A DNA stretch of 64,000 nucleotides from Candidatus Bathyarchaeota archaeon (GCA_963815095.1 CAWFFH010000003.1:1120001-1184000); one strand, 5' to 3'; positions 13,799-61,801 are shown, numbered from the stretch's first letter. The notes: generated by a model not told the origin, from the letters alone. Translations and numbers: made by a program.

Positions 13799-13881
13799 GT
13801 TGAGAAGACTCGGGGAGAAAAAATGCATAATAATCTGCATATTTTCTTTTCTCCCAACATCCCCTCCTCTCGAGTCTCAAC
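13799..13881 (+). ncRNA. Candidate small RNA hairpin element A
   Basis: GTTGAGA..ACTCG pairs with CGAGTCTCAAC; inner GGGAGAAAAAATGCA / TGCATATTTTCTTTTCTCCC; TATAAAAG at 13749; T-tract near 13893; shares motif with 35497 and 61705. Confidence 0.45.
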
Positions 13882-14009
13882 AACCCCCAAATGTTTTTCT
13901 TTAAAATTAAAGAACGATTTCGTGACCTATTTAGAGTCTAAATAAGTGAAAATGGTTATTAACAAGAAACATGTACGCTTAGACTTAGAGCGGTTAAGAG
14001 GAAAATATA

Positions 14010-14525
14010 ATGTCTATCGATCTCCTGGCAACACTAGCAATCATGGGAATTGCAGCTGGAATTGCTTTCTTAAACTCTGGCATAAACAGGGTTTTAATCA
14101 ACTACTTCATCGGCTGGGAACAATACCGCGTCATGCAGAAAGAAATGGCTGAATATCGTTCAGAAACAATGGCGGCCATGCGTGCGAACGATAAAAAACA
14201 AGTTGAAAAACTCAAAAAGAAAGATTCACAGATAAAAAATATGCAAGCAAAAATGATGAAACCTCAAATTGTCCAGTTCGGAATATCTTTTGTTTACCTT
14301 ATTGTTTGGTTTTTAGTGTTAACGCCTACTTTTCATAATGCTCCTATGGCTTTGATTCCTGGCATTGGTACAATTGCTAATGCTCAAACAATTACAAATG
14401 GCGTTGCGTTAACAATCCCTAACGCAATTCCAGTGTTCTACTGGTACCCCATCTGCTCTCTTTTCTTTGGCCTACTTTCTTCACGCATAATTGGCATAAT
14501 GCCAATTGAACAAGGACCTATATAG
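14010..14525 (+). CDS. EMC3/TMCO1 (DUF106, Oxa1 superfamily) membrane protein
   Basis: TM - coiled coil - MKP - TM - WY..CS pattern; canonical position before cmk. Confidence 0.85.
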   Translation: MSIDLLATLAIMGIAAGIAFLNSGINRVLINYFIGWEQYRVMQKEMAEYRSETMAAMRANDKKQVEKLKKKDSQIKNMQAKMMKPQIVQFGISFVYLIVWFLVLTPTFHNAPMALIPGIGTIANAQTITNGVALTIPNAIPVFYWYPICSLFFGLLSSRIIGIMPIEQGPI

Positions 14526-14548
14526 TGCTGAAAACAGGTGAACGCCAA

Positions 14549-15160
14549 ATGGCTAAACAACAAGAAAACTGCGTTTCCCCCAAAAAAACTGTAATTTGCA
14601 TATCTGGATTGGCTGGAACCGGAAAAAGTACGCTCTCCAAAAAACTCGCTGAGAAATACCAACTGCGATACTTTTCTGGCGGAGACGTTTTGAAAGAGTT
14701 GGCCCAGCAAGAGGGTTACGATGTGTCTATTCAGGGGTGGTGGGAAAGTCCGGCAGGCTTAAAATTTCTTAGCGAGCGAGCAAACGACCCTAAATTTGAC
14801 AAGGCTGTTGATGATAAGCTTTTAGAGCATGCTCAGCAAGGAAACGTTCTTTTGGACAGTTGGACTATGCCTTGGCTATTAAAGGATGGCTTTAAAATCT
14901 GGCTGGAAGCGTCGTTCGAAAGAAGAGCTGCAAGAGTTGCCGTTAGAGATGGGTTGACTGTTGCTGAAGCTTTTGATGTGTTGAAGGAAAAAGAGGCGCG
15001 GACTAAAGCTATTTACAAAGCGCTGTATGGTTTTGGTTTAGGTGAAGATTTCAAGCCTTTTGACTTCATTTTAGACACTGATAATTTGAGCGCAAATGAA
15101 GTATTCGAGGTCCTGTGCAAAGTAATAGATAACGTGGCTATTTCTTTCGATAGTGTTTAA
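14549..15160 (+). CDS. cmk: Cytidylate kinase (archaeal type)
   Basis: ISGLAGTGKST P-loop, SGG, D.ILDT; SD AGGTGA before ATG 14549. Confidence 0.9.
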   Translation: MAKQQENCVSPKKTVICISGLAGTGKSTLSKKLAEKYQLRYFSGGDVLKELAQQEGYDVSIQGWWESPAGLKFLSERANDPKFDKAVDDKLLEHAQQGNVLLDSWTMPWLLKDGFKIWLEASFERRAARVAVRDGLTVAEAFDVLKEKEARTKAIYKALYGFGLGEDFKPFDFILDTDNLSANEVFEVLCKVIDNVAISFDSV

Positions 15161-15274
15161 TCTTTTGTGAAATAGAACATTCTTCTATAACACAGTTTCA
15201 GCTGATTTAATAACTACAAGCAAGCAAATTAGCCATATGTCGTAAGCATATAACGCGAATGGGCTGGGCTGTAG

Positions 15275-15655
15275 TTGAAGAATTTAAACCGATTAGTAAC
15301 AATTTTCTTAGCAGAAACAATAATTCTAATCCTTATAACGTCCTATCGATTAATCAACAGCAGCCTATGCATCGCCAACCTCTTAATCTTTAATACTTTT
15401 TTTATTACACTATTTTTTCAACTTAACGGCAGTTTCAACCTTAAAATGGGCATATTAGCAGCAGGTAACTTCCTTGGATTACTTTGGAACCTATTTTTCT
15501 ATTACTTCTCTTTAGCAAGTCATAGTATTTTCAATATATCCTTCGATGTTTTCTTTATGATAGTTTATCCCATCTTGAACCTGATGTGGATGGTTCCCTT
15601 TTGGTCGTTGAGCTTGAGTCTTTTACCCAAACTACAACTTTCTAAAACTACTTAA
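15275..15655 (+). CDS. Hypothetical multi-pass membrane protein
   Basis: About 4 hydrophobic segments; 13 nt upstream of GT2. Confidence 0.65.
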   Translation: MKNLNRLVTIFLAETIILILITSYRLINSSLCIANLLIFNTFFITLFFQLNGSFNLKMGILAAGNFLGLLWNLFFYYFSLASHSIFNISFDVFFMIVYPILNLMWMVPFWSLSLSLLPKLQLSKTT

Positions 15656-15668
15656 TGGGGTTTGTGAA

Positions 15669-16946
15669 ATGTTAGTAGAAATAATAAACTTATTTTTCGT
15701 ATTTTCAGCATTAATTATAAGTGCTTATCTTATACGTCACTATTTTTTCACGCTATTCATTCTGCGGAGTCTAAAGAACTTGCCAAAGGAGGAAGTTTCT
15801 AGCCGTGACAATTATGAACCATCGGTTTCAATTCTTATCCCGGCTCATAACGAAGACCAAGTAATTGGCAAACTGCTACAGAAAATGGCTGAACTGTTAT
15901 ATCCGCATAGCAAACTGGAAATTATAATGATAGATGACGCTTCAACTGATAGAACAGGGCAAATCGCAGACGAGATTTCAAAACAATATCCATTCATCAA
16001 AGTGTTGCACAGAACCAGCCAAGAGGGCGGTAAGGGAAAATCTTCGGCTATGAATGCCGGGTTAAAGATAGCAAAAGGCGAAATTGTACTTTGCTTCGAC
16101 GCAGATTATCTCCCACATCCCGATGTAGTTAAGAGACTTGTAAAAAAGTTCGCCGACCCAACCGTCGGTGCCGTTCAGGGCAGACCCGTTGTATTAAATG
16201 AACCACAAAATATCCTAACTCGCATAATCGCTTTAGAACGTATAGGTGGCTACCGAGTCGATCAAGAAGCACGTGATGCTTTAGGTCTTGTGCCGCAATT
16301 TGGTGGTACAGTTGGGGGATTTAGGCGATGCATTGTGGATGAATTTGGTGGTTTTGACGAATCAATGATTACTGAGGACACCGATTTAACTTTCCACATT
16401 TATCTTGCGGGCTATAAAATTCGCTATTGTGGAGACGCAGAATGTTACGAGGAAGCTGTAGACTCTTGGAAGGCTTATTGGCGTCAAAGACACAGATGGG
16501 CAAAAGGACACATGCAAGTTTGTCTTAAACATGAGCTTAAGGTTATTCGAAGCAAGAAAATGAAGTTAAAAGAGAAAATTGATGGCTTGCTTTTATTGAA
16601 CATTTATTTTATGCCGCTTTTGACTATTTTTTCGTTTTTTGCTGGACTTTTGCTCATCTTGACTGGTTCACCAATAATTGAGTACCTTTGGTTAGCGGTG
16701 ATTATATCTTTTTACAGTTTCGTTGGAAATTATGCGCCCTTCTTTGAGATTGGAATAGGTGTGTATTTAGATGACAGAAAACGGGTTCAATGGCTAGCCC
16801 CATTATTGATTTTTTCTTTTATCTATAACATACTTATCTGCGGAAAAGCTTTCTTTGATCTGTTAACAGATAAATTACTACGTCGCAAAAGCAATTGGAA
16901 TAAAACAGAGCATCTAGGAAGGGGAAATCGTTATATTGGGAATTAA
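15669..16946 (+). CDS. Processive GT2 family glycosyltransferase (PgaC/IcaA/cellulose synthase-like)
   Basis: IPAHNE, DDASTD, FDAD, TED, QRHRW (QxxRW); N- and C-terminal TM helices. Confidence 0.9.
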   Translation: MLVEIINLFFVFSALIISAYLIRHYFFTLFILRSLKNLPKEEVSSRDNYEPSVSILIPAHNEDQVIGKLLQKMAELLYPHSKLEIIMIDDASTDRTGQIADEISKQYPFIKVLHRTSQEGGKGKSSAMNAGLKIAKGEIVLCFDADYLPHPDVVKRLVKKFADPTVGAVQGRPVVLNEPQNILTRIIALERIGGYRVDQEARDALGLVPQFGGTVGGFRRCIVDEFGGFDESMITEDTDLTFHIYLAGYKIRYCGDAECYEEAVDSWKAYWRQRHRWAKGHMQVCLKHELKVIRSKKMKLKEKIDGLLLLNIYFMPLLTIFSFFAGLLLILTGSPIIEYLWLAVIISFYSFVGNYAPFFEIGIGVYLDDRKRVQWLAPLLIFSFIYNILICGKAFFDLLTDKLLRRKSNWNKTEHLGRGNRYIGN

Positions 16947-16969
16947 GTGATAATGCTTTTTGATATTGA

Positions 16970-17176
16970 ATGATCTCAAATATAACTCTCTTCATTGTGA
17001 CCTTAATTGGTATGGCTTTGACAATTTTGATAATGTTTCTGCCCACAATTATTGAGTTAAGAAAACCTCGCGATGCTGGACCAAGATTAATAACAGAGTC
17101 CTTTACGTCAGCACAGCCTCTTAATCTTAAAACATCTTCAGACGACAAAGACGAGTTAAAAAAGACAGCTAATTAG
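16970..17176 (+). CDS. Small single-pass membrane protein
   Basis: Hydrophobic N-terminus then ELRKPRDAGPRLI; follows GT2. Confidence 0.55.
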   Translation: MISNITLFIVTLIGMALTILIMFLPTIIELRKPRDAGPRLITESFTSAQPLNLKTSSDDKDELKKTAN

Positions 17177-17189
17177 CTATTTTGAGCTA

Positions 17190-18236
17190 CTAATTTTTTT
17201 TGAAAAGTAACTTTGCATTTTTCCATTGGTCTTTAGCTAGTGATATATTTCCGTATGGGCTTCCGTGAAGCGAATAGAATACGTAGCAGAGATAGTTGCA
17301 TTGAGTGCATTGGTGATAGTTTTTTCTTAATTGTTTGAATTCTGGACTTTTCCATTTTTGAGTTAAATCAAAGATTGACCCTGCAAAGTTGTGGCTGTGG
17401 CATCCTGCAACTCTGCCCAAATGGTCAATGACTAAAAACTGGTTTAGTGCTTGGCATTTCCACGATCTTTTGTTGTCTTCTTCGTAGATGCTTCGAAGTG
17501 TTTCAAGCAATTTATCGGTCATGAGAATTTTTTTGTTTTTCTTTTTCATCTCGATAAGCGAGTTGCAGAGGTTAACCATTGCTTTTTTGTCTGTTATTAC
17601 AAATTCGTCATTTGCTCTTCCCAGCTTAAACAACTGTTTGCTGTCAGCAGATGTATCGTATGAGTAGAGACTATACCAGACTGGAATACCTTTTTCGGTG
17701 AAGTGGTTTGTTAGGTCAACGATTTCATAAAGGTTCTTTTGAGAAATTGTTGGAGTTACACTAACTTTTATGCCTTCATTGTGGAGGGTTTCAACGGCTT
17801 GAGTTGCATTTTTCCAAGCGCCCGGAACTGATTTGATGTAATCGTTTTTTGCTTCATCCAGACTATCAATTGAGATTGCAACGAAATCCACTTTTCTTAA
17901 TGCATCAAGTTTTTTTGCAGCCATACTTCCATTATCATAAACAGTTGTAACAAACAATTTTGATGCATAATTGATTATTTCGCCGATGTCATCTCGAAGT
18001 AGCGGGTCTCCGCCTGAGAGGACAAGCTCAATTACACCAATTTTTTTTAGAATATCTAAGCCTTTCTTTATTTCGTCGGTTGCAAGTTCTCTTTGATCTT
18101 GTTCTTTCCAAACGGTGCATCCACGGCATTGATAGTTGCATTTTCTTGTTACTAGCCATTGTGCATGATGAGGTTTGCCAGAAGCAAGCGAACGCGCCGC
18201 AATTGATGCTGCTTTTTTGAAACCAGACGTCAACAA
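17190..18236 (-). CDS. Radical SAM protein with Twitch/SPASM-like C-terminus
   Basis: CNYQCRGC (CX3CX2C), SGGDPLLR, ISIDS, C-terminal C...GC...CxxCxxxC. Confidence 0.88.
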   Translation of the reverse strand: MLTSGFKKAASIAARSLASGKPHHAQWLVTRKCNYQCRGCTVWKEQDQRELATDEIKKGLDILKKIGVIELVLSGGDPLLRDDIGEIINYASKLFVTTVYDNGSMAAKKLDALRKVDFVAISIDSLDEAKNDYIKSVPGAWKNATQAVETLHNEGIKVSVTPTISQKNLYEIVDLTNHFTEKGIPVWYSLYSYDTSADSKQLFKLGRANDEFVITDKKAMVNLCNSLIEMKKKNKKILMTDKLLETLRSIYEEDNKRSWKCQALNQFLVIDHLGRVAGCHSHNFAGSIFDLTQKWKSPEFKQLRKNYHQCTQCNYLCYVFYSLHGSPYGNISLAKDQWKNAKLLFKKN

Positions 18237-18321
18237 GTATCACTAGCCGATTAATTGTTATTACCTATCTCGGGTAGGAACTATAAAAACCATTATAAAA
18301 CTAAGGTTCTCGTATGTTGTT

Positions 18322-19338
18322 TCATGTGCTTTGACGAGACAGTGCAATCCACAGATGGTCTGAGGTTGGTCTTGGTAATATCTCTGGCGAATCATCCTTG
18401 TGAATGATTATGCGTTTGTTTGGGGTTGGGTTGAATTCGCCGATGACATCAGCGTATATGTGTTCTTGGCCGAGTGAGTCGATAATTTTATTTGTGGCTT
18501 GTGGGTCGGCGGCGATAAGTAGTGCTCCTGAACTGATAAGTTGCAGTGGGTCAATTTCGTAAAACCTGCAGATTTTAGCGGTTTCAGGTTCAATAGTTAT
18601 TTTCTCTTCAAACACGCGTACGCCTAAGCCTGCTGCGTCCGCCATTTCGTGAATACCGTTTAAGATTCCGCCTTCAGTTGGGTCGTGCATGGCATGTACT
18701 CCACCTGCTCTGTAAGCGGTTAAGGCATCTTTTACGATGCTGATTTGTTTGTAGAAACCTTTAGCGCTATCCAACAAGGTGGAGGTGAAAGTTTTTGTGA
18801 GCTGCACTTCCCGGTCAGAAGCTAAGATAGCTGTGCCCTCAATTCCTGCGCTCTTCGTCAAAATTAGTTTGTCGCCTGCTTTGGTGCCAGCGGCAGTAAC
18901 GTATTTGCCTTTTTCGGTTAAACCCATGATGCAGCCCACCACAATCGGGTTCTCTAAGCCGGGTGTGGATTCGCAGTGTCCGCCCACAATAGCAATGCCC
19001 AACTCTTTTGCAGCTTTGTGCATTTGGGTACTGATGGTTTCAACGATTTTGCTGTCCGCGTTCTCTGGAAGCATTATGCATGAGAAGAAAAACGCGGGTT
19101 CCACGCCGAAAGTGGCAACATCGTTGGCGTTTACGTTTATGGCTTCCCATCCGACTCGCTCAACCGCACCAGTTATGGGGTCCATAGAGACTATAGCGTT
19201 CTTATTTCCAAAATCTAAAACGGCTCCGTCCACACCTGCGGCGGGTCCCAAAATAACTTCGCTACGGGCGGTGCCGAGGTTTTTGAAAACTACATCTTTT
19301 AGGATGTCTATGGGAATTTTTCCAGGTGGAAGCTTCAT
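18322..19338 (-). CDS. AIR synthase/PurM-HypE-ThiL fold ATP-binding protein
   Basis: MKLPPGK, SMDPIT, NANDVA, IVGGH, MHDPTEGG. Confidence 0.85.
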   Translation of the reverse strand: MKLPPGKIPIDILKDVVFKNLGTARSEVILGPAAGVDGAVLDFGNKNAIVSMDPITGAVERVGWEAINVNANDVATFGVEPAFFFSCIMLPENADSKIVETISTQMHKAAKELGIAIVGGHCESTPGLENPIVVGCIMGLTEKGKYVTAAGTKAGDKLILTKSAGIEGTAILASDREVQLTKTFTSTLLDSAKGFYKQISIVKDALTAYRAGGVHAMHDPTEGGILNGIHEMADAAGLGVRVFEEKITIEPETAKICRFYEIDPLQLISSGALLIAADPQATNKIIDSLGQEHIYADVIGEFNPTPNKRIIIHKDDSPEILPRPTSDHLWIALSRQST

Positions 19339-19351
19339 GCGTATTCCTCTG

Positions 19352-19879
19352 TTAAAGCTGGCTTTTAAGCTGTGGGAAAATACGCAGTACTGCGTGCATG
19401 ATTGGTACTGCAATTATCAGGCCAATGAGCATTTGAACGATGTTGAAAGGAACTTCTAGAATCGCCACAGTACTTCCTAAGATAAGTGTTTCATAAAGGA
19501 AGTATCCTAAAACCATCTCAAACCCTCCAATAACAATGGATATGGTGGCGCTTAAAGTGATGCTTTTAGTCTTCTGTACTATTTTCTTGTATAGGATGCC
19601 GACGAGTAAACCTTCAATTGCTTTTATAGTGAAGGTTCCGGGGGCATACTGCGGAGCTACAAGTGCATCTGCTATTGTTGCTCCTGCACCTGCTATGGCA
19701 CCTACAAAAGGCCCGAACAGCAATGCAGCTACGTAAATGAGAGTCTCTCCGAGATTGAAGTATCCACTGGTAGCAGGAATAGGAATCACAAACAGTAGTG
19801 TGGCTGCTGCGACTAGTGCTGCAAAGATTGCGGCTACTGCAATTTTGAATGGTGTGGTTGTGTTAAATTTGGATTGCAT
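19352..19879 (-). CDS. ECF transporter S component (HmpT/PdxU-like)
   Basis: AAIFAAL (AxxxA), IPIPATSGYFNLGE, LFGP..G, TFTIKAIEG; about 6 TM. Confidence 0.85.
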   Translation of the reverse strand: MQSKFNTTTPFKIAVAAIFAALVAAATLLFVIPIPATSGYFNLGETLIYVAALLFGPFVGAIAGAGATIADALVAPQYAPGTFTIKAIEGLLVGILYKKIVQKTKSITLSATISIVIGGFEMVLGYFLYETLILGSTVAILEVPFNIVQMLIGLIIAVPIMHAVLRIFPQLKSQL

Positions 19880-19893
19880 GTTTTTCGCCTTAG

Positions 19894-19926
19894 TATAGTT
19901 GTGACTATAGTATAGTTGCAGCTATA
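19894..19926. promoter_or_regulatory. Tandem palindromic operator TATAGT-N4-(A/G)CTATA x2, directly downstream of the minus-strand TATA box (19931-19938)
   Basis: TATAGTTGTGACTATA (19894-19909) and TATAGTTGCAGCTATA (19911-19926). Confidence 0.7.
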
Positions 19927-19952
19927 CCATCTAATAAATATTCCCAAAACAA

Positions 19953-21365
19953 TCACATCAGCAACTGAATCTCATCAAACGCCGCCAAAACTTTTTTCCC
20001 ACGCTCCGAAACACGGAAAAACTTCTTCCCACCAACCTCGTAACCAATCACCAACCCCTTATCTGACAGTTCGTTGAGGTGTTGGTAGATAGCGGCGCGC
20101 GTCATTATCTTGCCCAATTGTTTCCACAAATCATAACCATACGTATCTTTCTCATTGAGAATCTTGAGAATTTTCTGTTTCGTACTTACCGCGAGCCCTA
20201 AGCCTATCGTCTTCTGTTTCTTGTTCAAAGCTTGCAACACATCAGTGGCTTTAAGACCGCTCCCCGTAATTAGGCACACAACGCTACCGTCTTTTGAGAT
20301 TCTTTTTTCATCTACAAGCTTTTTCAATGCTGCGACAGTTATTGCACTGGCTGGTTCTGCAAACACGCCCTCTAGTTTTGCGATCTGGAGTTCTGCAATC
20401 AAAATGTCTTGATCGGACACGGTTAAGGAAAGCCCTCCTGACTCAGTTATTGCTTTGGAGGCAAGTTCGCATTGAAGTGGATTTCCTACGAGGATTGCAA
20501 GGGCTCGAGTGGATGGATTGCAAGTTTTATTATTTTCAGAACCTTTGGCCGCGTTCACTATAGCAGCACATCCGTCAGGTTGAACTCCAACCATCTTTGG
20601 CAAGGTCTTCGTTAAGCCGCGTTGTTTTAGTTCTTTGAATCCTTTCCAAACTGAGTAAATGGTGCCCCCGCTTCCCATGGAAACTATCATCCACTCGGGA
20701 ACCTCATATTGTTCCATAATTTCGAAAGAAATGGTTTTTTGGGCTTCAATCACCAGCGGGTTAAGTTCCGCAGTTGCTTGATACCAACCTGTTTCTTTTG
20801 CTACAGCCTTTGCTTTTTGGATTGAGTCGTCAATGATTTCGCCGTATTCCTCAATTATCGCATCGTAGGCAAGTATCTGGGCAAGTTTTCCCACATCCAC
20901 TTCTTTTGGAACTATTACATGACAATTTAATCCAGCTTTTGCCGAGTAAGCGGCCAGAGATGCTCCCATGTTGCCGTTAGTTGCGCATACCAGTGTATCT
21001 GAAAGGAGGTCTATAGCATTAGAGGTTAGGAGTGCAGCAGCCCGGTCTCGATAGGAGTTGGTTGGGTTTCGTGTTTCATCCTTCAAATAAAGTTTAGTTA
21101 ATCCCATTGTTTTCGCAAGTCTCTCAGCCTTATGAAGGGGTGTTCCACCCTCTCCTAAACTGACCATTTGCCTGACAGCAGGAAGCATTTGCCTATACCT
21201 CCAAAACCTAAGTGTTCCAGAAAACTTGACCGATCGTTTCTGGGGAACGTCTGCCGTGTACTCCAATATTTTACCGCATTTTTCGCAGTTACTTCTAAGT
21301 GGGTAAACTGGAAATTTGGTGCCACAATGACTGCATTGAAGGTTTTCGTTGGACTCTTGGAGCAT
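19953..21365 (-). CDS. Threonine synthase-like PLP-fold protein (Schiff-base Lys replaced by Arg) fused to C-terminal winged HTH
   Basis: N-terminal CxxC..CxxC; SLGEGGTPL; NPTNSYRDR versus canonical NPTGSFKDR; MGSGGT; EPASA; C-terminal YGYDLWK..AIYQHLNEL..GLV wHTH. Confidence 0.85.
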   Translation of the reverse strand: MLQESNENLQCSHCGTKFPVYPLRSNCEKCGKILEYTADVPQKRSVKFSGTLRFWRYRQMLPAVRQMVSLGEGGTPLHKAERLAKTMGLTKLYLKDETRNPTNSYRDRAAALLTSNAIDLLSDTLVCATNGNMGASLAAYSAKAGLNCHVIVPKEVDVGKLAQILAYDAIIEEYGEIIDDSIQKAKAVAKETGWYQATAELNPLVIEAQKTISFEIMEQYEVPEWMIVSMGSGGTIYSVWKGFKELKQRGLTKTLPKMVGVQPDGCAAIVNAAKGSENNKTCNPSTRALAILVGNPLQCELASKAITESGGLSLTVSDQDILIAELQIAKLEGVFAEPASAITVAALKKLVDEKRISKDGSVVCLITGSGLKATDVLQALNKKQKTIGLGLAVSTKQKILKILNEKDTYGYDLWKQLGKIMTRAAIYQHLNELSDKGLVIGYEVGGKKFFRVSERGKKVLAAFDEIQLLM

Positions 21366-21546
21366 TTTTGGTTAAATCCAGTCAACTATTATTGTGTTCC
21401 TCCATTTCTCTCTTATCCAAAATTTGGTTACTAAATAGTAACTATAGTTGTTTCCCAAGAGCATTACAAAAGTAGCTAATGCGAGGGGGAAAATCTAAAT
21501 GTGACTTCTTCAAAGAATAATGTAGAACTAAGAGAGTTGCGTAAAA

Positions 21547-21951
21547 ATGAGCACTGTTAGAGAAGACCCAATTAAAATGCATAAAGATGCAATCACGTTG
21601 ATGGAAAATGGCAAGTACGCTGAGGCAAAAGACCTCTTTATGAAAGTGGCAGAACTCTATTATAAGGGACAGAACTATTTTGGCGCGGCAGAAATGAATT
21701 ATAAAGCAGGCGAATGTAGTTTTGCGCTAAAAGACTATACAAAAGCTGTAGAATTTTTCACCAAATCTGCTGACATCTCATTTGGCAAAGGCTTTGAGCG
21801 TTATGGCGTTAGTGCATTAGAGCAAGCGCGTGATAGCCAGAAATCATTGGGTAACGCTAAAGAAGTAGCGGAACTGGAAAAGAAGATTAGGGAAATCAAC
21901 GACAAACAAAAAGAGCCTGAAGGCGAATCTTCGTTCTCTGTATTTTCCTAA
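21547..21951 (+). CDS. TPR-like helical repeat protein
   Basis: Repeated Y..A...F..A / AGEC helical pattern. Confidence 0.7.
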   Translation: MSTVREDPIKMHKDAITLMENGKYAEAKDLFMKVAELYYKGQNYFGAAEMNYKAGECSFALKDYTKAVEFFTKSADISFGKGFERYGVSALEQARDSQKSLGNAKEVAELEKKIREINDKQKEPEGESSFSVFS

Positions 21952-21957
21952 ACTTGT

Positions 21958-22743
21958 TTAGTTACCCCAAGTTTTCCTTTTTTTGATTTTTTGCTGCAGA
22001 ATACTGTAAGTCAGGCTTGGGGCAGCAAAATCAGTTGAGGTTTTGATTTCAGGGGTAAAATCGACGATCCCTAACATGTAAGTGGGATGCTTTTCTAACT
22101 CAACTTCGCTGGTGTAGGGTGTTTTTGTGAATCGAAGCACCGTGTTTGCTTTTTGGGTTGTTATTTCTTGTAGGGTAATGTTTCTTCGGTTGCTCTCATG
22201 CGATAGATATGTTGCGATTATGATGATTCGGTGTTTTTTTGCGAAATTTGCAAGATAACTCATGATTTGGCTGTAAACCGCTTTTGCTTCTTGGTCATCC
22301 ACGTTGTCATTCAAAAATGAACTCACCATATCAGAGATCACTACAAGTTTTGCTCCAGATGTTTCTACGGTCTCTGATAGTTTCTCCATTATTAGAGAAG
22401 TCAGTCGATATGCTGTATATGCGCGCATACTGATTACTCGTCCGAGCGCTGCTTTGGGGTCTAGTTGTTGAAGTTCTGCAGCTTGCGCTATGTTTGATAG
22501 TGAAGAACTGTTTGAGCAATCAATGAAAATAACATCGCTTTCTAGTCCGCCAAGTTTCATTGGTAATTGTGCACGGACGCAAAGCTCAGACATTAATGCC
22601 GTAACTGATTGAGAGCCATAGACGACTGCGAAGTCTCCTGCTTTGAATCCTGGAAAAATCTGCTCTATTTCTGGAACCTTAAAAGTAAACTGTTTAGTAG
22701 TTGTCTGTATTATTGTCGCTTTAAGCATAAGTTTTTGTTGCAT
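21958..22743 (-). CDS. Inactivated RadA/RecA-fold protein
   Basis: RAQLP..LGGL, VIFID, RAYT, LVVISD; Walker A degenerate (YGSQSVT). Confidence 0.75.
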   Translation of the reverse strand: MQQKLMLKATIIQTTTKQFTFKVPEIEQIFPGFKAGDFAVVYGSQSVTALMSELCVRAQLPMKLGGLESDVIFIDCSNSSSLSNIAQAAELQQLDPKAALGRVISMRAYTAYRLTSLIMEKLSETVETSGAKLVVISDMVSSFLNDNVDDQEAKAVYSQIMSYLANFAKKHRIIIIATYLSHESNRRNITLQEITTQKANTVLRFTKTPYTSEVELEKHPTYMLGIVDFTPEIKTSTDFAAPSLTYSILQQKIKKRKTWGN

Positions 22744-22902
22744 CGTTTCTTCACAGAAAACCAGTTTACCCTGATTTGCCTATTTAAAGCGTCGATGCAG
22801 CAACATAGCCGAATAGTGGAGGGGTCAGTGAAAGTGAATTTGGGAGCAATCAATTATAGTCTCAAACACCTTTAGACTAATACGCGTTTTTTGGGGTAAA
22901 TT

Positions 22903-24597: not shown

Positions 24598-24624
24598 CAA
24601 CACACAATTTGGAGATGACTAAAG

Positions 24625-30601: not shown

Positions 30602-30606
30602 CTGGC

Positions 30607-35450: not shown

Positions 35451-35496
35451 TATTCTTTAAAATCTTCTCTTCTTACAAGAAGAGATAGCCTGAATA

Positions 35497-35586
35497 GTTA
35501 GGCAGGTCGAGTTGCCAACAAAAGGTGAGGTTTTTGCATTTTTCTCCTCCTTATCTTCTGGCTGCGGTTGGCTTGACCTGCTTAAC
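35497..35586 (+). ncRNA. Candidate small RNA hairpin element B
   Basis: About 18-bp stem GTTAGGCAGGTCGAGTTG / TTGGCTTGACCTGCTTAAC with several G-U pairs, which imply the + strand; CU-rich loop; T-tract after. Confidence 0.55.
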
Positions 35587-35610
35587 CATATTTTTAATAA
35601 AGAAATTGTT

Positions 35611-50493: not shown

Positions 50494-50505
50494 AAATTTA
50501 ATTTT

Positions 50506-50582
50506 TGGAGCCTCGAGCGGGCCTTGCTCCCGCGGCCTGCTGCTTACAAGGCAGCCGCTCTACTGGGCTGAGCTATCGAGGC
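50506..50582 (-). tRNA. tRNA-Thr(UGU), intronless, CCA encoded
   Basis: GCCTCGA/TCGAGGC acceptor, GCTC/GAGC D-stem, GCTGC-CTTGTAA-GCAGC anticodon arm, GCGGG/CCCGC T-stem. Confidence 0.88.
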
Positions 50583-51200
50583 ACCCAACAAAGAGCCCAG
50601 ATTACACCAACAAATAAAACATTAAACAAATAAAAGTTACTACTAAAATTCTACCCAGACAAAGATTCTGCAAGCAAAATTCTCACCAATAAAAAAATAT
50701 TTTATCATTTCAAGGACATATCCCTTATTCTCTAGTAAAACCAATGGTTAATCAGTATTTTAAACTGCCTAATTATAAGCCCAATAGAAAACTCATTACA
50801 AAATCATGGAAATAAAGTCGCTATCGGCGTTTCTAATCGCTACAGAATGCTCAAAACCAGCGCTTATCGATTCTATCCCAAACAAGACAAAATAATGCAG
50901 AGTTGTTCCATAAATAACGACAATCTTATATGCTGGAATAGTGCTAATAAGGTTCCCCACATATGCAACTCGGCATCAAAGCAAAATGCGCGAGTGAAGA
51001 ATGCAAAAGAAGCTAAACAACGCACGAAAACATCGCCAACAAACCTTGCAACTGTTCAACGATACACTTATATTAAAGAAATCTGCTTCTATTGCAGTTC
51101 AGCAATTATGGGTTATACCATAAAAAAGATGCAACTCCCCACCTAACAGTGTGGAGTGAAGGGTGAGTTGAGTTCCTGATCACTGGGAATTCACAATGAC

Positions 51201-54397
<3,197 letters not shown>

Positions 54398-54600
54398 AAC
54401 TCATATTTGTTTTTTTTGATTTTGTGTTATTGTTTTCTGCTTTCTTTTTTCTTTTGCTCTCCAAGTGTCGGGTTGCAAATGTTTGGTTATGCACGTTAAT
54501 TGTGGTGGTTCTATTTTTGGTGTCGTTTATAGGTAAAATTGGGGTTTTTCTGAGTAAACGTTATATCAGCAAAATTGCAGCTAAGACTGATGAGTAATCT

Positions 54601-54741
54601 ATGACAGCCAATACAAAAACGCCTCTTTGCCCCACCTGTTACATAGAAATGAAACCAAAATGCAACAAAGATAACACCGTAATCTATCACATCTGCCCAC
54701 AATGCGGAACGTTGATTTTGTTTACTCACTCAGGACACTAA
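54601..54741 (+). CDS. Small CPxC/CPxCG zinc-finger microprotein (46 aa)
   Basis: MTANTKTPLCPTCYIEMKPKCNKDNTVIYHICPQCGTLILFTHSGH*; AAACGTTATAT promoter-like element upstream. Confidence 0.65.
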   Translation: MTANTKTPLCPTCYIEMKPKCNKDNTVIYHICPQCGTLILFTHSGH

Positions 54742-54887
54742 AACTGGGTTATGCCGTTGTTATTTGGTTGCAGTGCGGAAAAGCAAAATAGCAAATATTA
54801 ATCAAAATTTAGTTGCAATAAGAATTTCCAGAATCCTGAATTCATAAAGCCTATTTATATCTTCATTGAACATGTTTTTGATTCAAA

Positions 54888-55025
54888 ATGAAAAGTAAAC
54901 AAGTTCTTGAAACCTGCAGTTTAGAGTCCCCGATCACCATTGACTTTTTCGATTTGGATACAGTTGAACAAGTGGTTGAGGAAGCTTTCATTAAGGAACC
55001 GAAGAAGCGAAGACGAAAAGCCTAA
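54888..55025 (+). CDS. Small hypothetical protein (45 aa), acidic core with basic tail
   Basis: MKSKQVLETCSLESPITIDFFDLDTVEQVVEEAFIKEPKKRRRKA*; AAAGCCTATTTATAT promoter-like element upstream. Confidence 0.5.
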   Translation: MKSKQVLETCSLESPITIDFFDLDTVEQVVEEAFIKEPKKRRRKA

Positions 55026-55209
55026 CCTTCAGACCTCAGGCTCAAAACGCTTAATCCTGGCTTTCTATTTTTGTAGAGAAAACAAGTTTAGGTGCAGTAG
55101 ACGCTGGATTTACAGCTAATGTTATGTCCAGACAAAAAAACTCAAGTTCCAAAACCTTTTTAAAAAATGGGCGAAGCGTCAAAAAGAAATTGTTGTTTAG
55201 GCTGAGTCT

Positions 55210-55413
55210 TTATTCGCCCCAGTCTTCGCCCTCAATAGTTAACTCTTGAAGGTCAACACAAACGCCTTTTACCTGTTTAACCTCAAGTTCAAGACCACAG
55301 CCAGGACAACTCACAATTTCACCTTTCTCTGTGTCAGCTGGAATATCTAGATCTGCATCACAGTCTGGGCATTTTGCTTTGTTTTGTTTAATTTGATTTT
55401 GGGGATTAATCAT
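55210..55413 (-). CDS. lysW: Amino-group carrier protein LysW/ArgW
   Basis: CPDC...CPGCG..LEV and C-terminal EDWGE. Confidence 0.92.
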   Translation of the reverse strand: MINPQNQIKQNKAKCPDCDADLDIPADTEKGEIVSCPGCGLELEVKQVKGVCVDLQELTIEGEDWGE

Positions 55414-55556
55414 TATGTTTTTTCTCTTTTTGATTGTTGATTCTCATGGGTGAAGATTTCTTTTAAATATTGCGACTTTTATGTAACAAATTATGCTATT
55501 TATGTTCTATTTGGAACAATAATTGTTAATGCAACCAAAACTAACAAGACCTGAAC

Positions 55557-56618
55557 ATGAGAATAATCTTCCACCTAGACATGGATCACTTCTACACAGC
55601 AGTTGAGGAGCGGGAACGCCCAGAAATCAAAGGCTCAGCCGTAATCGTCGGCGCCGACCCCAAAGCGGGCAGGGGCAGAGGCGTCGTTAGCACGAGTAAT
55701 TATGAGGCGCGAAAGTCCGGTGTGCGTTCGGGTATGCCGATTTCAATGGCTTGGCGGCTTTGCCCAAGAGCGGTGTATTTGCCCCCGGATTTTCCTTTGT
55801 ACATTCGTGTTTCAAGCGAAATCATGGAATTAGCGCGGAAGTATGCGAGAAAGTTTGAGCAGTGGGGGATTGATGAGGTTTTTTTGGATGTAACAGACAA
55901 GGTTGGAAGTTGGGCTGAGGCTGAGGTGTTGGCGCGGCGAATTAAGGCTGAGATTAAAGAGAAAGAGGGGATCACTGCCTCAATTGGTATTGGACCCAAT
56001 AAGCTGGTTGCAAAAGTTGCGAGTGATTTCCAGAAACCCGACGGCTTAACCATCGTTCGGGAAAGTGAAGTGGAAAAGTTCCTTGATCCCTTGCCTGTGC
56101 GCAAGTTGTTGTGGGTTGGACGTAAAACCGAAGCCAAACTCACAGAATTAGGTGTAAACACAATCGGCGACTTGGCGCGTTATGAACCCACAGCGTTGAC
56201 TTCTATGTTTGGCGTAATGGGTTTGCAGATGCATCTGATGGCAAAAGGCGTAGACCGAAGCTAAGTTGAGGAGCGCATGGGTGTAAAAAGTGTCAGTCAC
56301 GAAACCACTTTTGAAGAAGACACTGCAGATTCCACAGCTATCTTTCAAGCTTTGGATGCGCTCTGCGAAGATGTTTTAAAGGAAACAGTTGACCAGCACT
56401 TGCTGTTCAAAACGGTAACCGTTAAAATTCGTTACCAAGGCTTCGAAACACATACAAGAAGCAAAACCCTGCCCTTTCTGACCAACCGTCTCCGTGACCT
56501 GCAAAAGACCGCTAACGAGTTGCTGTTTGCCAACTTGAGCAAAGACCGGAAAGTCAGGTTGATTGGGGTACGGGTTTCCAGCTTGGTTTCAGGGGAAAAG
56601 CAAAAAACTCTAATTTAG
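55557..56618 (+). pseudogene. dinB: Y-family DNA polymerase IV (DinB/Dpo4) interrupted by one in-frame TAA
   Basis: HLDMDHFY, SNYEAR..GV.SGM, GIDE, KPDG; TAA at 56262-64, same frame continues KSVSHETTF..VRLIGVRVS..QKTLI. Confidence 0.85.
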
Positions 56619-56880
56619 AGTTTTTTCGCTGGCGACTTCAGATAGTGTCTTTTGGGTTCATACTATGTTTAGGATTTTGCTTGATTAATCTTTGTGGTCG
56701 CCTGGGTAGCCAACTGCTAACCTGATAACTCGAAGTTGCTGGGAATTTTAAGAGCGCATTACGAGGAGGAAAAATATTTGTTCAGAGTTTTTTGTTCAAT
56801 AGAACAACAACGCTTGAAATTGCTGCACTGATAACCTTGTTTTAGGTTGCTTTTCTGTTTTCGGGCTTGTGGAGTTTGTA

Positions 56881-57658
56881 GGTTGCGTCTGGGGTAGTCG
56901 GTGTTCGTCTGGGTGCGGCTGGTTACGGTTTGGTGTTCTTCTATTCAGGAAAGGTTAGGCTGTCTTGGTTGCAGTGTTAGCGTAAAGTCGATTATGTCAT
57001 AATTGTGCCAGTAATTGTTATTAGTTTAGAATGCAGAAGTTATTTTGGATTACGTATGGCACAGAGGAGTTTGTGTCTGTCTAATAGAAGAAGTCCACAT
57101 GTTTTATTGCGTTTTATAGGGGGCTTTGTTTTGGATTGCTTTTTTGATTTAGGGCTTGTATTGTTTGCGGGTTGCGTCTGTGGAAGTCTGGGTTTGTCTG
57201 GGAAAGGTTTGGGACGGTAGAGTATTGCCTTTAACTGAGAAGGTGTCTTTTCAAGCTATGCTTCAGAAGAGCAACCGACTGCAGATTCCACGGGTGGTAC
57301 GGTGGCGTTTCAAAGTTGAAAGCGACCAGGTTCTAAAGGTAACAGTACACTGCCGCGATGCTTATCTCATGAGTGAGCATTTCTATGCAATAATGAGCAA
57401 AGTGGCCGCATAGTTGTTCCAAAGCTGATACTATTTGTGATTGGTCGTTATAAGCCAAGCCTTGAAGGTTACACATTCCAAGTTGCATTGGAACCATCTT
57501 AGCTATGGGTGATTTGTGAAGGGTTTTTGTTCTGTTAGAAGAAGAACATTTGTTTTTTGCTTGCGGTAAAGGGCTTAGTTTTAACTTGCTCTTTTGGTTT
57601 AGCATTTGGATTGCTTGTCGGCTGCGTCTGGGGGAGTCTTTGTTCGTCTGGAAAGGTT
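56881..57658 (+). repeat. Three copies of a 30-40 bp element, each with GTCT boxes at exact 10-bp spacing
   Basis: Copies start at 56881, 57170, 57620; consensus GG(T/C)TGCGTCTG.GG.AGTC...GTT.GTCTGG. Confidence 0.75.
57225..57502 (+). pseudogene. Tandem AbrB/MazE-like swapped-hairpin DNA-binding protein, frameshifted
   Basis: MPLTEKVSFQAMLQKSNRLQIPRVVR...FYAIMSK, then 1-nt shift to GRIVVPKL...FQVALEPS*. Confidence 0.6.
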
Positions 57659-57841
57659 AAATTTAAGTTATACAAATCTTCGGAGTAATCGCCCACCAAT
57701 CGTCCAACCTCTCAACACCGTTCCAGATGACTACGACGCAGAAGAACCGATCGGCCAAAAAAGAAGTGCAACCACACGAAAAAGATGAAGCGAATCCTCT
57801 AACAAGTTAGCCTCCCCTAAGTTTTTGCCTTTTTTCACTGC

Positions 57842-58783
57842 TCATTTTGCAAGTAGAGCCAGCGATCTAACATTTCCCGAAACACTCAGTCTTATAGCCG
57901 CCACGGCATTCAGAAGCATCGCAATCAAACAGAACAACGAATGAAACGTAACCCGCAGCAAACTCCTGACCCGATGATTCTCAAGCACAGCAGCTCCTTA
58001 AGCCTAAAGTTAACCCTCTCAACTGAAGACCGAAGCCTGTAAAACCGCTTCTCGAGCTTGGGTCCATGAGTTCGAAAGAACCTGTCAACCCTCAACAGCC
58101 CCCTTTGGCCACGCATCTGGTTAGCAGGATAAGGAATAACGACACGACCCCCTGCAGCCTTAGCTTGTTCTCTTTGACCCTGCAAAAGTACTTGCGAATC
58201 CGCAACCAATAGCTTCATCTTCTTTATTGTCGCCTTGAGAGCTTTTTTGAAAAGATCTGGAGCATGCTTTTTCTCGTTGTCGTTGGTGGGAGACACCGTG
58301 ACCGCCAAGGGTAGTTCAGACTTAGCGTCGACTGCGAGGTGTAGTTTGCAGGCCAAGCTCGTAGGTTTTGCCGTTCCTTCCCACCTTGCCCTTGGATCCG
58401 AGCCGCCTCTGCTGTTTTCGTGTATATCTCGCTTGCTGTAGGCTTTGATGAAGGTGGCGTCAAAAGCCACTTTCTTGCCCTTGACGACTTTTTGTCAATC
58501 AACTAGTCGAGCAGGGTGTTCATGATTTTCTCGAGCCTTTTGACTCCGATGCGGTCTCTGAATCGGGTTAACTGTGAAGGGTGATAGGGCTTTTCGTAGT
58601 CTTCGATGTCGCAGATTTCTCTGAGGTCTTGGTCTTTCCATAGTCTTCGGTATAGTTCTCTGTCGCTGGGGCTCTGTTTGGTTTTCTTGGAGGTCTGCCT
58701 GCGCCTTATTTGTGTAGGTTCAGTTAAAGTCTCTTAGATGTCGTCGTGTTCTAAACTGCACAAAATGGAGCGAGAATTTTCAT
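57842..58783 (-). mobile_element. Degenerate IS transposase (IS5/IS1182-like DDE)
   Basis: SDRELYRRL..LREIC..SQLTRFR, DATFIKA, KLHLAVD, RSSVERVN; multiple stops and frameshifts. Confidence 0.75.
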
Positions 58784-59024
58784 TCTTCTCCATAATAGAC
58801 TAAGAATAAATCAGATACAAATGTATTAAGCATGAAAATGTCAATCAAAATAGTTTAGCAACGAACTGGCGTGTGCGTAAGAGCTTCTTGCGACAACATT
58901 GTTTATAAAAAATTGCCAAATTATGTTATTAATGGCTATTTTGTGCATCTGAGTTATTCCGATAGCAAAACTTTTAAATAAAGTCACAGATTGACGCATT
59001 AAATGCAGAACAGGAGACAAAAGA

Positions 59025-61643
59025 ATGAATTTATACAAAGATAAGAAAACTACAATTGCACTCGTAATATTGCTAATAGTTTCAATGTCAGCTTCAATGA
59101 TGCTACTACCCAGCACATCCGCTCATACCCCTAAATGGGATCTGACAACTAATGCTTACATATCAGCTAACCCCAATCCTATAGGCGTCGGTCAATCAAC
59201 CCTTGTATACATGTGGTTAAACAAAGTCTACGACGGCGCAGCAATCGGCAACGATAATAGGTTCCACAACTACAAACTCACCATAACAGCCCCTGACGGT
59301 ACAAACACAACCCAAACTTTCGACACGATCCAGGATACAACATCTAACCAAGGCTATCGTTTCACACCTGACCAAGTCGGAACATACAACCTTACCTTCA
59401 ACTTTCCAGGACAAGCCATAAACGACTATACACATGATGCTAACTCGCAATATGTAAACGACACATACCTCCCCAGCAGCGCAACAACAACACTAATTGT
59501 CCAAGAAGAAGGAATTTCATATATTCCGCAAGCACCTTTGCCAGCGGAGTATTGGACACGACCCATATACGGCGAGAACACTAACTGGTTTACTATATCA
59601 TCTAACTGGCTAGGCAGCGGCTCACCCGGCTACGGCGGCTTCTCAAACAGTTACAACGCAGGCGGAAACGGCGAACTGATAAGCCCACAAGACGCAGTTG
59701 GACCATTGACTTCTCACATAATGTGGACAAGGCCATATCAAACGGGCGGAGTCGTTGGAGGCGACAACTTTGCAATCCAAGGAGACACCTACTTCGAAGG
59801 CTCAGCATATAACCAGAGATTCACCAACCCAATAATTGTGAACGGCAAACTATACTACACACAAACAGAATCTTTCGTAGTGTCCTTCTTTGGAGCCTCA
59901 GGACCGCTTCAATGTGTTGATCTGCGAACAGGAAAACTTATATGGTCAAGAGCTGATGTTCCCGCAATTAGCTTTGCCTACATCTATGATGTTCAAGACC
60001 CTAACCAACACGGTGTTTACCCAGCAATACTCTTCACAAGCAACTTTGCCCGGGCATTTGACGCAGACACTGGAGACCCACTGTTCAACGTAACTGGTGT
60101 GCCATCAGCAAATCAGTACCAAATGGCACTTGGTCCACAGGGAGAACAGCTACGGTTCGTTTTAACAAACAAAGGAACGAGTTCAAATCCAAACTGGTAT
60201 CTAGCCGAATGGAACTCTTCTAAGCTTTGGGATTACACTGGTTTATCCCCCGCCATTTCGGGCTCAACCGATGCTAGCACCTCCAATCGTTACGATTGGA
60301 ATGTCTCAGTTTCCGCTCTTAACTCAGCAGGTTCATCCATCACAGTAGTTCGCGCCCTATACAATGATACACTTCTATGCTACAGCGGAACATTACCCTC
60401 CCAAGGAGCCACATTCATGGGTACATTGGGTTTCAACGATTACACATACTACGCCATTAGTCTTGCTAAAGGTCACGAGGGCAGTCTTCTATGGTCAAAC
60501 ACACTAAATCCACCAGCAGGCAACCTTACCGTAATGGAAGCTGGTGTTGATCCAATAAACCGCGTCTTCACTGAAAACCTAAGAGAAACTAACAACTTTG
60601 TTGGCTACAACTTAGATACAGGCGCAAAAATTTGGGGACCAACAACACCTCAAGTAGCTCTCGACTACTACGGCAGCCCCTCTTCCGGCAGTATAACCGA
60701 TACAATAGCTTACGGTAAACTATACGCAATGGGCTATGGAGGCATAGTCTACTGCTATGACACCAACACGGGCGATCTCCTCTGGACTTACGGAAATGGC
60801 GGAGCTGGCAACAGCACAAACAGCGGCTTTGAAGTACCAGGACACTACCCAATATTCGTCCAAGCCATCGGCAACGATGTTGTGTACCTTGCCTCTTCAG
60901 AGCACACAGTCGAAACACCAATCTACAGAGGCGCACTAGCACGAGCAATCAACGCAACCACCGGCGAAGAAATCTGGACTCTCTCAAGTTATACTGGCGA
61001 GTTCTTCGCCATGAGCTATGCAATTGCAGACGGTTACGCAACCTGGTTCAACGGCTATGACAACCAAATCTACAGTGTAGGCAAAGGACCAACAACTCTA
61101 AACGTAGAAGCACCAACACTTGCTAGCACACTAGGCTCAAATCTAGTAATTCGCGGATCAGTTTACGACATTTCTGCAGGCACACAACAAAGCGAGCAAG
61201 CAAGTCGCTTCACCAAAGGTGTTCCATGTGCAGCTGATGAAATTATGACCGGCTGGATGGGTTATGTCTATCAGCAACAAGTAATGCCAAGCAACTTCAA
61301 AGGCGTTGACGTAACAATCGATGTGGTAGATGCTAACGGCAACTATCGAAACATAGGAACAGCAACTACTGATGCGAGTGGAGCATACACTCTAACATGG
61401 ATGCCTGATATTCTTGGAGACTACACTGTTATTGCTACTTTCCATGGCACCAACGGTTACTGGCCATCATACGCAGAAACAAGTTTCACAGTTGACCCAG
61501 CAGCAGCAACACCGTCACCCACGGAAGCACCACCACAATCAGTAGTTGACATGTACTTTGTTCCCGCAGTCGCAGGCATAATCATTGCCATAGTAATAGT
61601 TGGCATTATCTTAGCGCTGCTCTTACTCCGGAAACGACCATAA
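59025..61643 (+). CDS. Secreted, C-terminally anchored PQQ-binding-like beta-propeller surface protein (paralogue 2)
   Basis: Shares AHTP.W, NP.GVGQ, EYWTRPI.GEN, DPNQHGV, WTYGNG..GNST, GKGP with 10302..12965. Confidence 0.8.
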   Translation: MNLYKDKKTTIALVILLIVSMSASMMLLPSTSAHTPKWDLTTNAYISANPNPIGVGQSTLVYMWLNKVYDGAAIGNDNRFHNYKLTITAPDGTNTTQTFDTIQDTTSNQGYRFTPDQVGTYNLTFNFPGQAINDYTHDANSQYVNDTYLPSSATTTLIVQEEGISYIPQAPLPAEYWTRPIYGENTNWFTISSNWLGSGSPGYGGFSNSYNAGGNGELISPQDAVGPLTSHIMWTRPYQTGGVVGGDNFAIQGDTYFEGSAYNQRFTNPIIVNGKLYYTQTESFVVSFFGASGPLQCVDLRTGKLIWSRADVPAISFAYIYDVQDPNQHGVYPAILFTSNFARAFDADTGDPLFNVTGVPSANQYQMALGPQGEQLRFVLTNKGTSSNPNWYLAEWNSSKLWDYTGLSPAISGSTDASTSNRYDWNVSVSALNSAGSSITVVRALYNDTLLCYSGTLPSQGATFMGTLGFNDYTYYAISLAKGHEGSLLWSNTLNPPAGNLTVMEAGVDPINRVFTENLRETNNFVGYNLDTGAKIWGPTTPQVALDYYGSPSSGSITDTIAYGKLYAMGYGGIVYCYDTNTGDLLWTYGNGGAGNSTNSGFEVPGHYPIFVQAIGNDVVYLASSEHTVETPIYRGALARAINATTGEEIWTLSSYTGEFFAMSYAIADGYATWFNGYDNQIYSVGKGPTTLNVEAPTLASTLGSNLVIRGSVYDISAGTQQSEQASRFTKGVPCAADEIMTGWMGYVYQQQVMPSNFKGVDVTIDVVDANGNYRNIGTATTDASGAYTLTWMPDILGDYTVIATFHGTNGYWPSYAETSFTVDPAAATPSPTEAPPQSVVDMYFVPAVAGIIIAIVIVGIILALLLLRKRP

Positions 61644-61654
61644 AACAAGCAACC

Positions 61655-61686
61655 AAAAACAAACACCTCTCTTTCTTTTTTTGTTT
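61655..61686 (+). terminator. Pyrimidine-tract terminator shared by both beta-propeller genes
   Basis: AAAACAAA(CA)CCTCTCTTTCTTTTTT here and at about 12977-13003. Confidence 0.55.
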
Positions 61687-61704
61687 AAAGGCAGAATATA
61701 AATG

Positions 61705-61801
61705 GCTGAGAAGGCCCTAGTAAATTTCACAAAAATAACTATAAGCTGTTAAAAGAGAGTTTGCATTTTCTCTTTTCTCCGATTTGGTCCAGAGTCTCAG
61801 C
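61705..61801 (+). ncRNA. Candidate small RNA hairpin element C
   Basis: GCTGAGA / TCTCAGC closing stem; inner AAAAGAGAG / TTCTCTTTT; motif TTGCATTTTCTCTTTTCTCC. Confidence 0.4.

Follow-up and report, generated by a model that had tools for sequence, protein, structure and literature searches.

Bulge-helix-bulge motifs in transcripts other than transfer RNAs (tRNAs), and the circular products of such substrates, are already known, and in the passages of the published account that bear on it the motif is defined as a 4-bp helix with a 3-nucleotide (nt) bulge on either side (PMC7714728). Two examples described there, the intron in the 5' untranslated region (UTR) of Haloferax volcanii HVO_1309 and the intron of the crenarchaeal cbf5 mRNA, carry this same 4-bp motif with two 3-nt bulges in a non-tRNA transcript (PMC7714728). 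Here we analysed 64,000 nt of Candidatus Bathyarchaeota archaeon (GCA_963815095.1 CAWFFH010000003.1:1120001-1184000), the whole of which we call the window, and in which an initial annotation had singled out three intergenic hairpins; their quoted sequences are all present as given, and we refine their limits to 13796-13888 (element A), 35492-35595 (element B) and 61702-61808 (element C), all on the plus strand. Our preferred reading, to which we assign a probability of roughly 0.45, is that A and C are genes or 3'-terminal modules for RNAs of about 100 nt that would be excised, circular and antisense to the translation starts of a family of surface-protein paralogues, within one order of Bathyarchaeia.

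As for the two introns, an excised circular RNA made by splicing endonuclease and ligase is the expected product of the element; the introns are single-copy and their removal matures the host mRNA, whereas in the element it is the excised piece that is conserved and presumably functional, as far as the excerpts of that account allow the comparison (PMC7714728). The element further differs in having 1-19 copies per genome, in lying behind genes and not inside them, in its antisense core, and in that its cleavage is a prediction only. Bacterial 3'-UTR-derived small RNAs (sRNAs) offer another parallel, being regulatory RNAs at the 3' end of a protein gene that are possibly released by processing, although the element belongs to another domain of life, would use another processing enzyme and in many of its copies may have its own promoter. 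Methanosarcina mazei sRNA162 is reportedly a trans-acting archaeal sRNA that masks ribosome binding sites. The predicted product of the element resembles it, in the part of the literature consulted, in being small and in exposing a segment that is complementary to the sites where translation of its targets begins (PMC3510493). The two have no relation in sequence or structure, and the element is multi-copy, tied to one paralogue family, closed by a splicing motif and known from sequence alone. Circular RNAs from archaeal tRNA introns and ribosomal RNA (rRNA) precursors, including those of Bathyarchaeia, involve the same enzymes that are predicted for the element, according to passages of a recent paper (PMC12918454). 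The element shares the polarity of a tRNA-Ser intron but stands outside tRNA and rRNA, with its interior conserved as an antisense module. Judged by title, abstract or passages, the papers returned by a search on Bathyarchaeia together with bulge-helix-bulge do not describe it. To our knowledge, the regulatory RNAs of uncultured archaea are almost unknown, and the non-tRNA, non-rRNA substrates of archaeal splicing endonuclease amount to a handful of single introns.

The host assembly is an archaeal genome of 2.69 Mb with 42% G+C. Within it, blastn-short gave no cross-matches among the three intergenic regions A, B and C. The A/C family came to light only through relatives, in which region C is a repeat matching at up to 10 dispersed places per related genome. 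We built a covariance model, R1, from an alignment of 26 copies, of which this genome contributed 6 and five relatives the other 20, with A left out. Run with filters off on the window, R1 gave C a score of 94.8 bits and A one of 41.9 bits (E 9.6e-8), the next best match reaching 13.8 bits; in the whole genome six copies scored 76-104 bits, A again 41.9 bits (E 4e-6) and a degenerate copy 34.2 bits, giving a copy number of eight, with pairwise identities of 39-80%. The 26 aligned copies have in common a 5' part GGGCUGAGAAGGCUCUGG, a variable middle followed by the core UUUGCAUUUUCUCUUUUCUCC, and a 3' part CCAGAGCCUCAGCAAACC. Judged from the R1 scores and the covariation, A and C are members of one conserved, multi-copy, structured RNA-like family of about 100 nt.

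We next examined how widely the family is spread, all counts referring to sampled genomes, in which a failure to find it does not equal absence. In the sample of its GTDB family, R1 detected the A/C family in 24 of 121 genomes, which represent 12 of the 70 genera, and in the class-wide sample in 8 of 141 genomes, belonging to this family and a sister family of one order (5/13 and 2/4); the 123 genomes from 29 other families in the latter sample yielded zero matches. Rfam has no entry matching the A/C family: at gathering scores the window gave only the 23S rRNA and one tRNA, and at E<=1 none of the three element loci was matched. The initial annotation had treated A, B and C as one dispersed family and had proposed a covariance model as the way to find further members and covariation, which the eight copies, the 24 of 121 genomes and the pair changes described below have now supplied for A and C; B has a different scaffold with the same core, and R1 does not match it at E<=10, filters off.

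The closing stem of the family consists of an outer helix GGG/CCC, a central helix GCUG/CAGC and an inner helix of 9 bp, with a 5' bulge AGA between the central and inner helices and a 3' bulge AAA between the central and outer helices. Since it agrees with the published definition given above, we regard it as a canonical bulge-helix-bulge. The compensatory change between A and C (GTTGAGA/TCTCAAC vs GCTGAGA/TCTCAGC), pointed out before, is real and forms part of a larger conserved structure; the closing stem of the "long hairpin" is a bulge-helix-bulge, which had escaped notice. Across 56 copies the 16 pairs of the motif are 95.4% paired, and 11 of the 16 show changes on both sides, compared with 4.0 +/- 1.2 in shuffles, a level reached by 0 of 500. 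When the partners were slid along the helix, only 20-55% of cells paired. A second sample of 46 rows, partly overlapping the first, gave 91.2% paired and again 11 of 16 pairs changed on both sides.

The central helix is 99.1% paired in the 56 copies and 95.6% in the 46 rows, with compensatory variants that include GUUG/CAAC in A and C-G in place of U-A, and the inner helix is 96.6% paired, 7 of its 9 pairs having changes on both sides. The 5' bulge is 3 nt long in all 56 copies (AGA in 32; AGA, AGU or AAA in 49), and the 3' bulge is AAA in 54 of 56. The pair adjoining the 5' bulge, which is absent from the structure of the model, is AU in 34 copies, GC in 14, GU in 6 and other in 2. In folds of single sequences the bulges are unpaired with probabilities of 0.77 and 0.91, and the helices are closed.

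This closing stem points to excision by the splicing endonuclease as a predicted step. The genome encodes two tRNA_int_endo proteins (100.5 and 75.5 bits), with genes at C1:54071 and C4:89623, and RtcB (597.7 bits), and 5 of its 46 tRNAs have introns, of which that of tRNA-Ser(gga) folds with identical bulge polarity. The longest of the five, 95 nt, interrupts tRNA-Trp (contig C5 complement 133283-133461, by aragorn). Passages of two papers provide the background that the two-subunit type of endonuclease tolerates relaxed motifs (PMC7714728) and that circularisation of rRNA by endonuclease and RtcB operates in Bathyarchaeia (PMC12918454).

The reverse complement of the family core is GGAGAAAAGAGAAAAUGCAAA, and the surface-protein paralogues, 19 in this genome, begin GGAGAAAAGAAAA-AUG, often followed by CAA. 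When each sequence is folded alone, the core is predicted to be mostly unpaired, with mean probabilities of 0.67 and 0.60. Searching both strands of the 2.69 Mb for GGAG[AG]{7,12}ATGCA returned nine matches, namely four paralogue starts, the antisense of four elements and the antisense of B; two more paralogues match the pattern with GAGGA replacing GGAG. The complementarity continues past the AUG into the first codons, in the best case at 24 of 26 positions. Antisense of the element interior scored above the 99th percentile of 600 other open reading frames (ORFs) against 12, 11, 12, 7, 13, 2, 9 and 2 of the 19 paralogue 5' regions, element by element. A second block, exact over 11-13 nt and matching codons ~7-11, is present in just 3 of 8 elements, suggesting that the interior began as an inverted copy of a paralogue 5' end. 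Also confirmed is the 11-nt complementarity, noted earlier, of A to the initiation region (GGAGAAAAGAA) of the gene at 10302.

We also computed duplex energies between seven cores and 3,538 ORFs of at least 100 amino acids, taking the best candidate start per ORF. Paralogues occupy ranks 2, 3, 4, 20, 21, 48, 55, 60, 83, 92 and 101. The area under the curve for family starts against other genes is 0.84 (0.72-0.95) with the real cores and 0.45 (max 0.77) with 42 shuffled cores, and the mean number of paralogues within the top 3% is 7.0 with real and 0.19 with shuffled cores. The initial annotation had called for statistics because the motif is low in complexity, and by these figures the matches exceed mere low complexity. 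The core thus appears to be specifically antisense to the region from Shine-Dalgarno sequence to AUG of the surface-protein paralogue family, beyond what shuffled pyrimidine tracts attain, which supports this part of the proposal.

The elements are also tied to these genes by position. In this genome, each of six intact copies, and also the degenerate one, is found 58-82 nt past the stop of a paralogue and on its strand. These paralogues have ~860-920 amino acids and combine a PQQ_2 beta-propeller with an Ig-like domain and a C-terminal anchor whose last residues are ...LRKRP. At 79 homologous loci in public metagenome-assembled genomes, 45 of 45 full matches are on the gene strand, and 38 of 77 homologous genes have an element 50-98 nt after the stop. 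Among the 3' ends of the 19 paralogues in this genome, 11 have only the shared C-rich tract and T run, and one has a relic. The earlier statement that A and C both lie downstream of beta-propeller genes is borne out, at 58 nt for C and at 830 nt, with a flavodoxin ORF in between, for A.

From the family, its covarying motif, the enzyme genes, the linkage to one gene family and the specific complementarity, we infer transcription, cleavage, circularisation, pairing in the cell and a regulatory outcome along the following lines. The tRNA-splicing endonuclease would cut both bulges of the canonical bulge-helix-bulge, and RtcB would join the ends into a stable, probably circular RNA of ~93 nt, the interior of which would display its largely unpaired pyrimidine-rich core, antisense to the Shine-Dalgarno sequence, spacer, AUG and first codon of the paralogues. 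Pairing would block ribosome binding on paralogue mRNAs, the main targets being those with a GGAG-purines-AUGCAA start, most of which have no element of their own, and expression of an element-bearing paralogue would consequently damp the other family members. If true, the splicing endonuclease would gain a role in making regulators and there would be a natural class of probably circular antisense RNAs; confirmation would open a testable route to the choice among surface-protein paralogues in abundant soil and sediment archaea. The antisense reading of the initial annotation is in this way strengthened by a covarying family, a family-specific core and the linkage to genes, and curtailed in that B falls outside the family. 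A bolder version strikes us as rather doubtful when taken as a whole. In it, endonuclease and RtcB would make circular antisense RNAs from modules attached to surface-protein genes, these RNAs would cross-silence sister paralogues, and the cell would produce just part of the ~19 proteins at any one time. Archaeal cell-surface variation would then have an RNA-based exclusion system, and the B-type scaffold would act likewise with interchangeable loops.

Several observations weigh against the excised-antisense reading. Concerning the targets, non-paralogues take rank 1 and 15 of the top 20 predicted ones, the target region itself has low complexity and is rich in purines, and the cores of some genera show no clear anti-AUG. 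Concerning the structure, the outer helix has only 2-3 bp and is 86.9% paired in the first sample and 79.3% in the second, its outermost pair being open in 14 of 56 copies of the former and 21 of 45 of the latter; A has almost no outer helix, and the inner helix of C has a weak point made of two mismatches (C-A, A-C) and one G-U. The bias of G-U pairs towards the plus strand is moderate only (33 vs 19). Furthermore, the sequence of the motif is conserved beyond the need of structure alone, which hints at another binding partner. As for RNA, metatranscriptomes included 14 runs with small shares of the window, and the contigs of four of them, compared with the window, cover pieces of the surface-protein gene and none of 61682-62100, so that no RNA, end or junction of C was seen. 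Finally, the sparing of element-bearing genes is weak and a trend only. In this genome the medians are -13.9 kcal/mol for element-bearing and -16.5 kcal/mol for other paralogues (p=0.105; 6 vs 13 genes), and the energy difference in a larger sample has p=0.19 (32 vs 35). ATGCA starts are found in 3 of 32 element-bearing genes and 12 of 35 others (p=0.019), a contrast picked post hoc among related genes. The poorer targeting of element-bearing genes would fit trans action on sister genes.

The soil metatranscriptome contigs, from two studies, match pieces of 59286-61514 at 99-100% identity, so the organism or a very close relative was present in the RNA libraries, DNA carry-over being possible.

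One rival explanation fares best, though we hold it to be doubtful. According to it, the element is a structured RNA whose pyrimidine-rich core binds something else, such as a ribosomal component or an RNA-binding protein, Sm-like or other. The match to surface-protein start regions would then have arisen incidentally, either from purine-rich leaders or because the element descends from an inverted copy of a gene's 5' end, and would play no regulatory part today. Conservation of both core and closing-stem sequences beyond the need of pairing speaks for this, as do the many non-family genes among the best predicted targets, the anti-AUG missing in some genera and the diverse loops on the B-type scaffold. 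Against it stand the restriction of the strict pattern to family start regions, element antisense and B, the extension of the complementarity into the first codons, the second block found in three elements, and the loss of the signal with shuffled cores.

Next in standing, and unlikely in our view, comes a cis-acting 3'-UTR module of the surface-protein mRNA, which would be part of a read-through RNA and serve autoregulation or the definition or protection of the 3' end. The fixed distance of 50-98 nt from the stop, always on the gene strand, would suit such a module, and so would the inheritance of the element along with gene duplicates, seen from the shared flanks. Opposed to this, a core matches its own upstream gene no better than non-cognate genes (permutation p=0.72 by alignment and 0.85 by energy), and in this genome the cognate pairs of core and gene are the weaker ones (p=0.98). 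In addition, a T run separates gene from element, and among 20 loci from other species such a gene precedes the element at 11 but not at the remaining 9. Five of these nine have in common a TTTAAA box ~55 nt upstream and a purine-rich leader, suggesting a promoter of their own.

We compared the flanks of 56 element copies and of 19 paralogues. In the window, the conserved 3' flank of the gene bearing C (61644-61701, plus strand) opens with an A/C-rich tract, continues with a C/T-rich one that includes a T run, and has a TTTAAA box and then a leader rich in purines before the element; it may act as a terminator or promoter. Self-masking of the core by pairing with the leader is weak, at -9.9 kcal/mol vs -8.4 with shuffled leaders and -9.5 with permuted ones. 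A T5 run occurs within 60 nt downstream in 38 of 98 copies, compared with a background of 16%, and A/T boxes lie upstream. We also observe that the 3' flanks of all 19 paralogues (window 61644-61690) have an A/C-rich tract, a C-rich stretch and a T run, often with a small CCC...GGG hairpin, and that this flank is conserved even across genera.

It is quite improbable that the element is a DNA-level repeat. As such it would be either a miniature inverted-repeat transposable element (MITE), bounded by terminal inverted repeats, or an inverted copy of the gene's 5' end at which recombination or inversion switches surface-protein genes. The terminal inverted repeats and many dispersed copies would agree with this, the core, as an inverted family start region, would leave each gene flanked by ~20-bp inverted repeats, and paralogues do occur in tandem arrays. 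Target-site duplications are nevertheless lacking, the longest flank word in common having a mean of 3.29 over 98 copies vs 3.31 +/- 0.13 when permuted; copies within the genome share only the 39-80% identity given above; the stem is maintained by compensatory changes and G-U pairs; the orientation relative to the gene is strict; and conserved bulges have no reason at the level of DNA.

The tandem arrays of paralogues are found at C3:1329372-1340819 and C3:191800-201179, and in them element-bearing and element-less genes are mixed.

Short peptides, the alternative raised at the outset from the LHxxFSP..SRVS frame in which A and C are similar, or else a minus-strand ORF behind GGAG plus ATG, can practically be dismissed, as no frame is conserved: the lengths from core to 3' stem fall into all three classes modulo 3 (23, 19 and 14 of 56), 18 of 56 copies have a stop in the plus frame, several have TAG at the bulge in the frame of the 5' stem, and the minus-strand ORFs run from 1 to 22 codons without conserved length.

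Returning to the two family members in the window, we describe C, the full one, as follows. It lies 58 nt 3' of the stop of the plus-strand gene 59025-61643, a paralogue of 872 amino acids with a PQQ_2 beta-propeller, an Ig-like domain and the C-terminal membrane anchor ...LRKRP (Pfam). The 5' strand of its motif (61702-61720) comprises the outer helix at 61702-61704, the central GCUG at 61705-61708, the bulge AGA at 61709-61711 and the inner helix at 61712-61720; the 3' strand (61789-61808) comprises the inner helix at 61789-61797, the central CAGC at 61798-61801, the bulge AAA at 61802-61804 and the outer CC at 61805-61806. By the rule for tRNA introns, with the topology checked against the tRNA-Ser intron, the predicted 5' cut falls after 61710, and the 3' cut would fall after 61803; the predicted circular junction would thus connect 61803 to 61711 in C, and 13883 to 13805 in A. 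The core TTTGCATTTTCTCTTTTCTCC of C, at 61760-61780, is antisense to GGAG, a purine spacer, ATG and CAAA.

Element A is a diverged member. Its central helix GUUG/CAAC pairs 13799-13802 with 13878-13881, its bulges are AGA at 13803-13805 and AAC at 13882-13884, and its inner helix pairs 13806-13814 with 13869-13877, the outer helix being weak. Its core TGCATATTTTCTTTTCTCC (13836-13854) is internally paired in the minimum-energy fold. Instead of the usual middle hairpin, 13814-13856 holds GGGGAGAAAAAATGCA, a stretch that resembles a start region and pairs with the core of A itself, which may mean that A is self-masked or in decay. The same locus in relatives shows no conserved hairpin A, conservation there being limited to the gene at 14010, in its promoter and leader. 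Another paralogue in the window, of 887 amino acids (10290-12965, plus strand), has the start region GGAGAAAAGAAC-TTG and ranks 92 of 3,538 ORFs as a target.

Element B, by contrast with A and C, belongs to a second family of hairpin scaffolds. Using the covariance models R2 and R3 of this scaffold, we found that B scores 83.5 bits with R3, which has 13 matches in this genome, A and C not among them. The scaffold reads GUUGGGCGGRUCUGGCUGCUAAC, a variable loop, then GUUAGC-ACAY-GGCUAAAUCCGCCYAAC. It is laid out as a long hairpin whose 3' strand has a 4-nt bulge and whose apical loop, ~30 nt in size, is variable, and it looks like a modular carrier for different loops. The family is present in 19 of 41 genomes of the genus, but in 3 of 121 in the family-wide sample, and by these searches it is a genus-restricted, sRNA-like family. 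In most copies of this genome a TTATAT-like box lies ~45-50 nt before the element, and a T run, commonly with CCCC behind it, comes after; B itself is preceded by an A/T box and followed by a T run. Other copies are located on C4 (15581-15685, 60501-60607, 21264-21367 and 27922-28037), on C2 (3324-3428 and 8976-9080) and on C3 (166093-166196, 1096615-1096719, 889914-890018 and 1491911-1492016). Loops vary among copies, and the UUUGCAU...CUCC core is limited to B, where it lies in the apical loop (TGCATTTTTCTCCTCC, 35535-35550), and its orthologues. B is conserved in two relatives, in which its stem is kept by compensatory change, and Rfam gave no match at its position in the window. A role of the B loop as a family-specific antisense was considered and rejected, as paralogues rank only 8, 20 and 29, with other genes above them.

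Two further features were noted in the course of the analysis. An ORF of 348 codons is present in four copies (C3:1060976, C3:1398728, C4:83777 and C4:2498, the last on the minus strand) with an identical start region GGAGAAAGAAAAAAAATG, and is probably a mobile gene. The window also contains a 23S rRNA gene (51285-54319) without an adjoining 16S gene, the flanks of which (~51177-51300 and 54308-54420) can pair with each other into a very long processing stem, for which the duplex energy is -100.6 kcal/mol.

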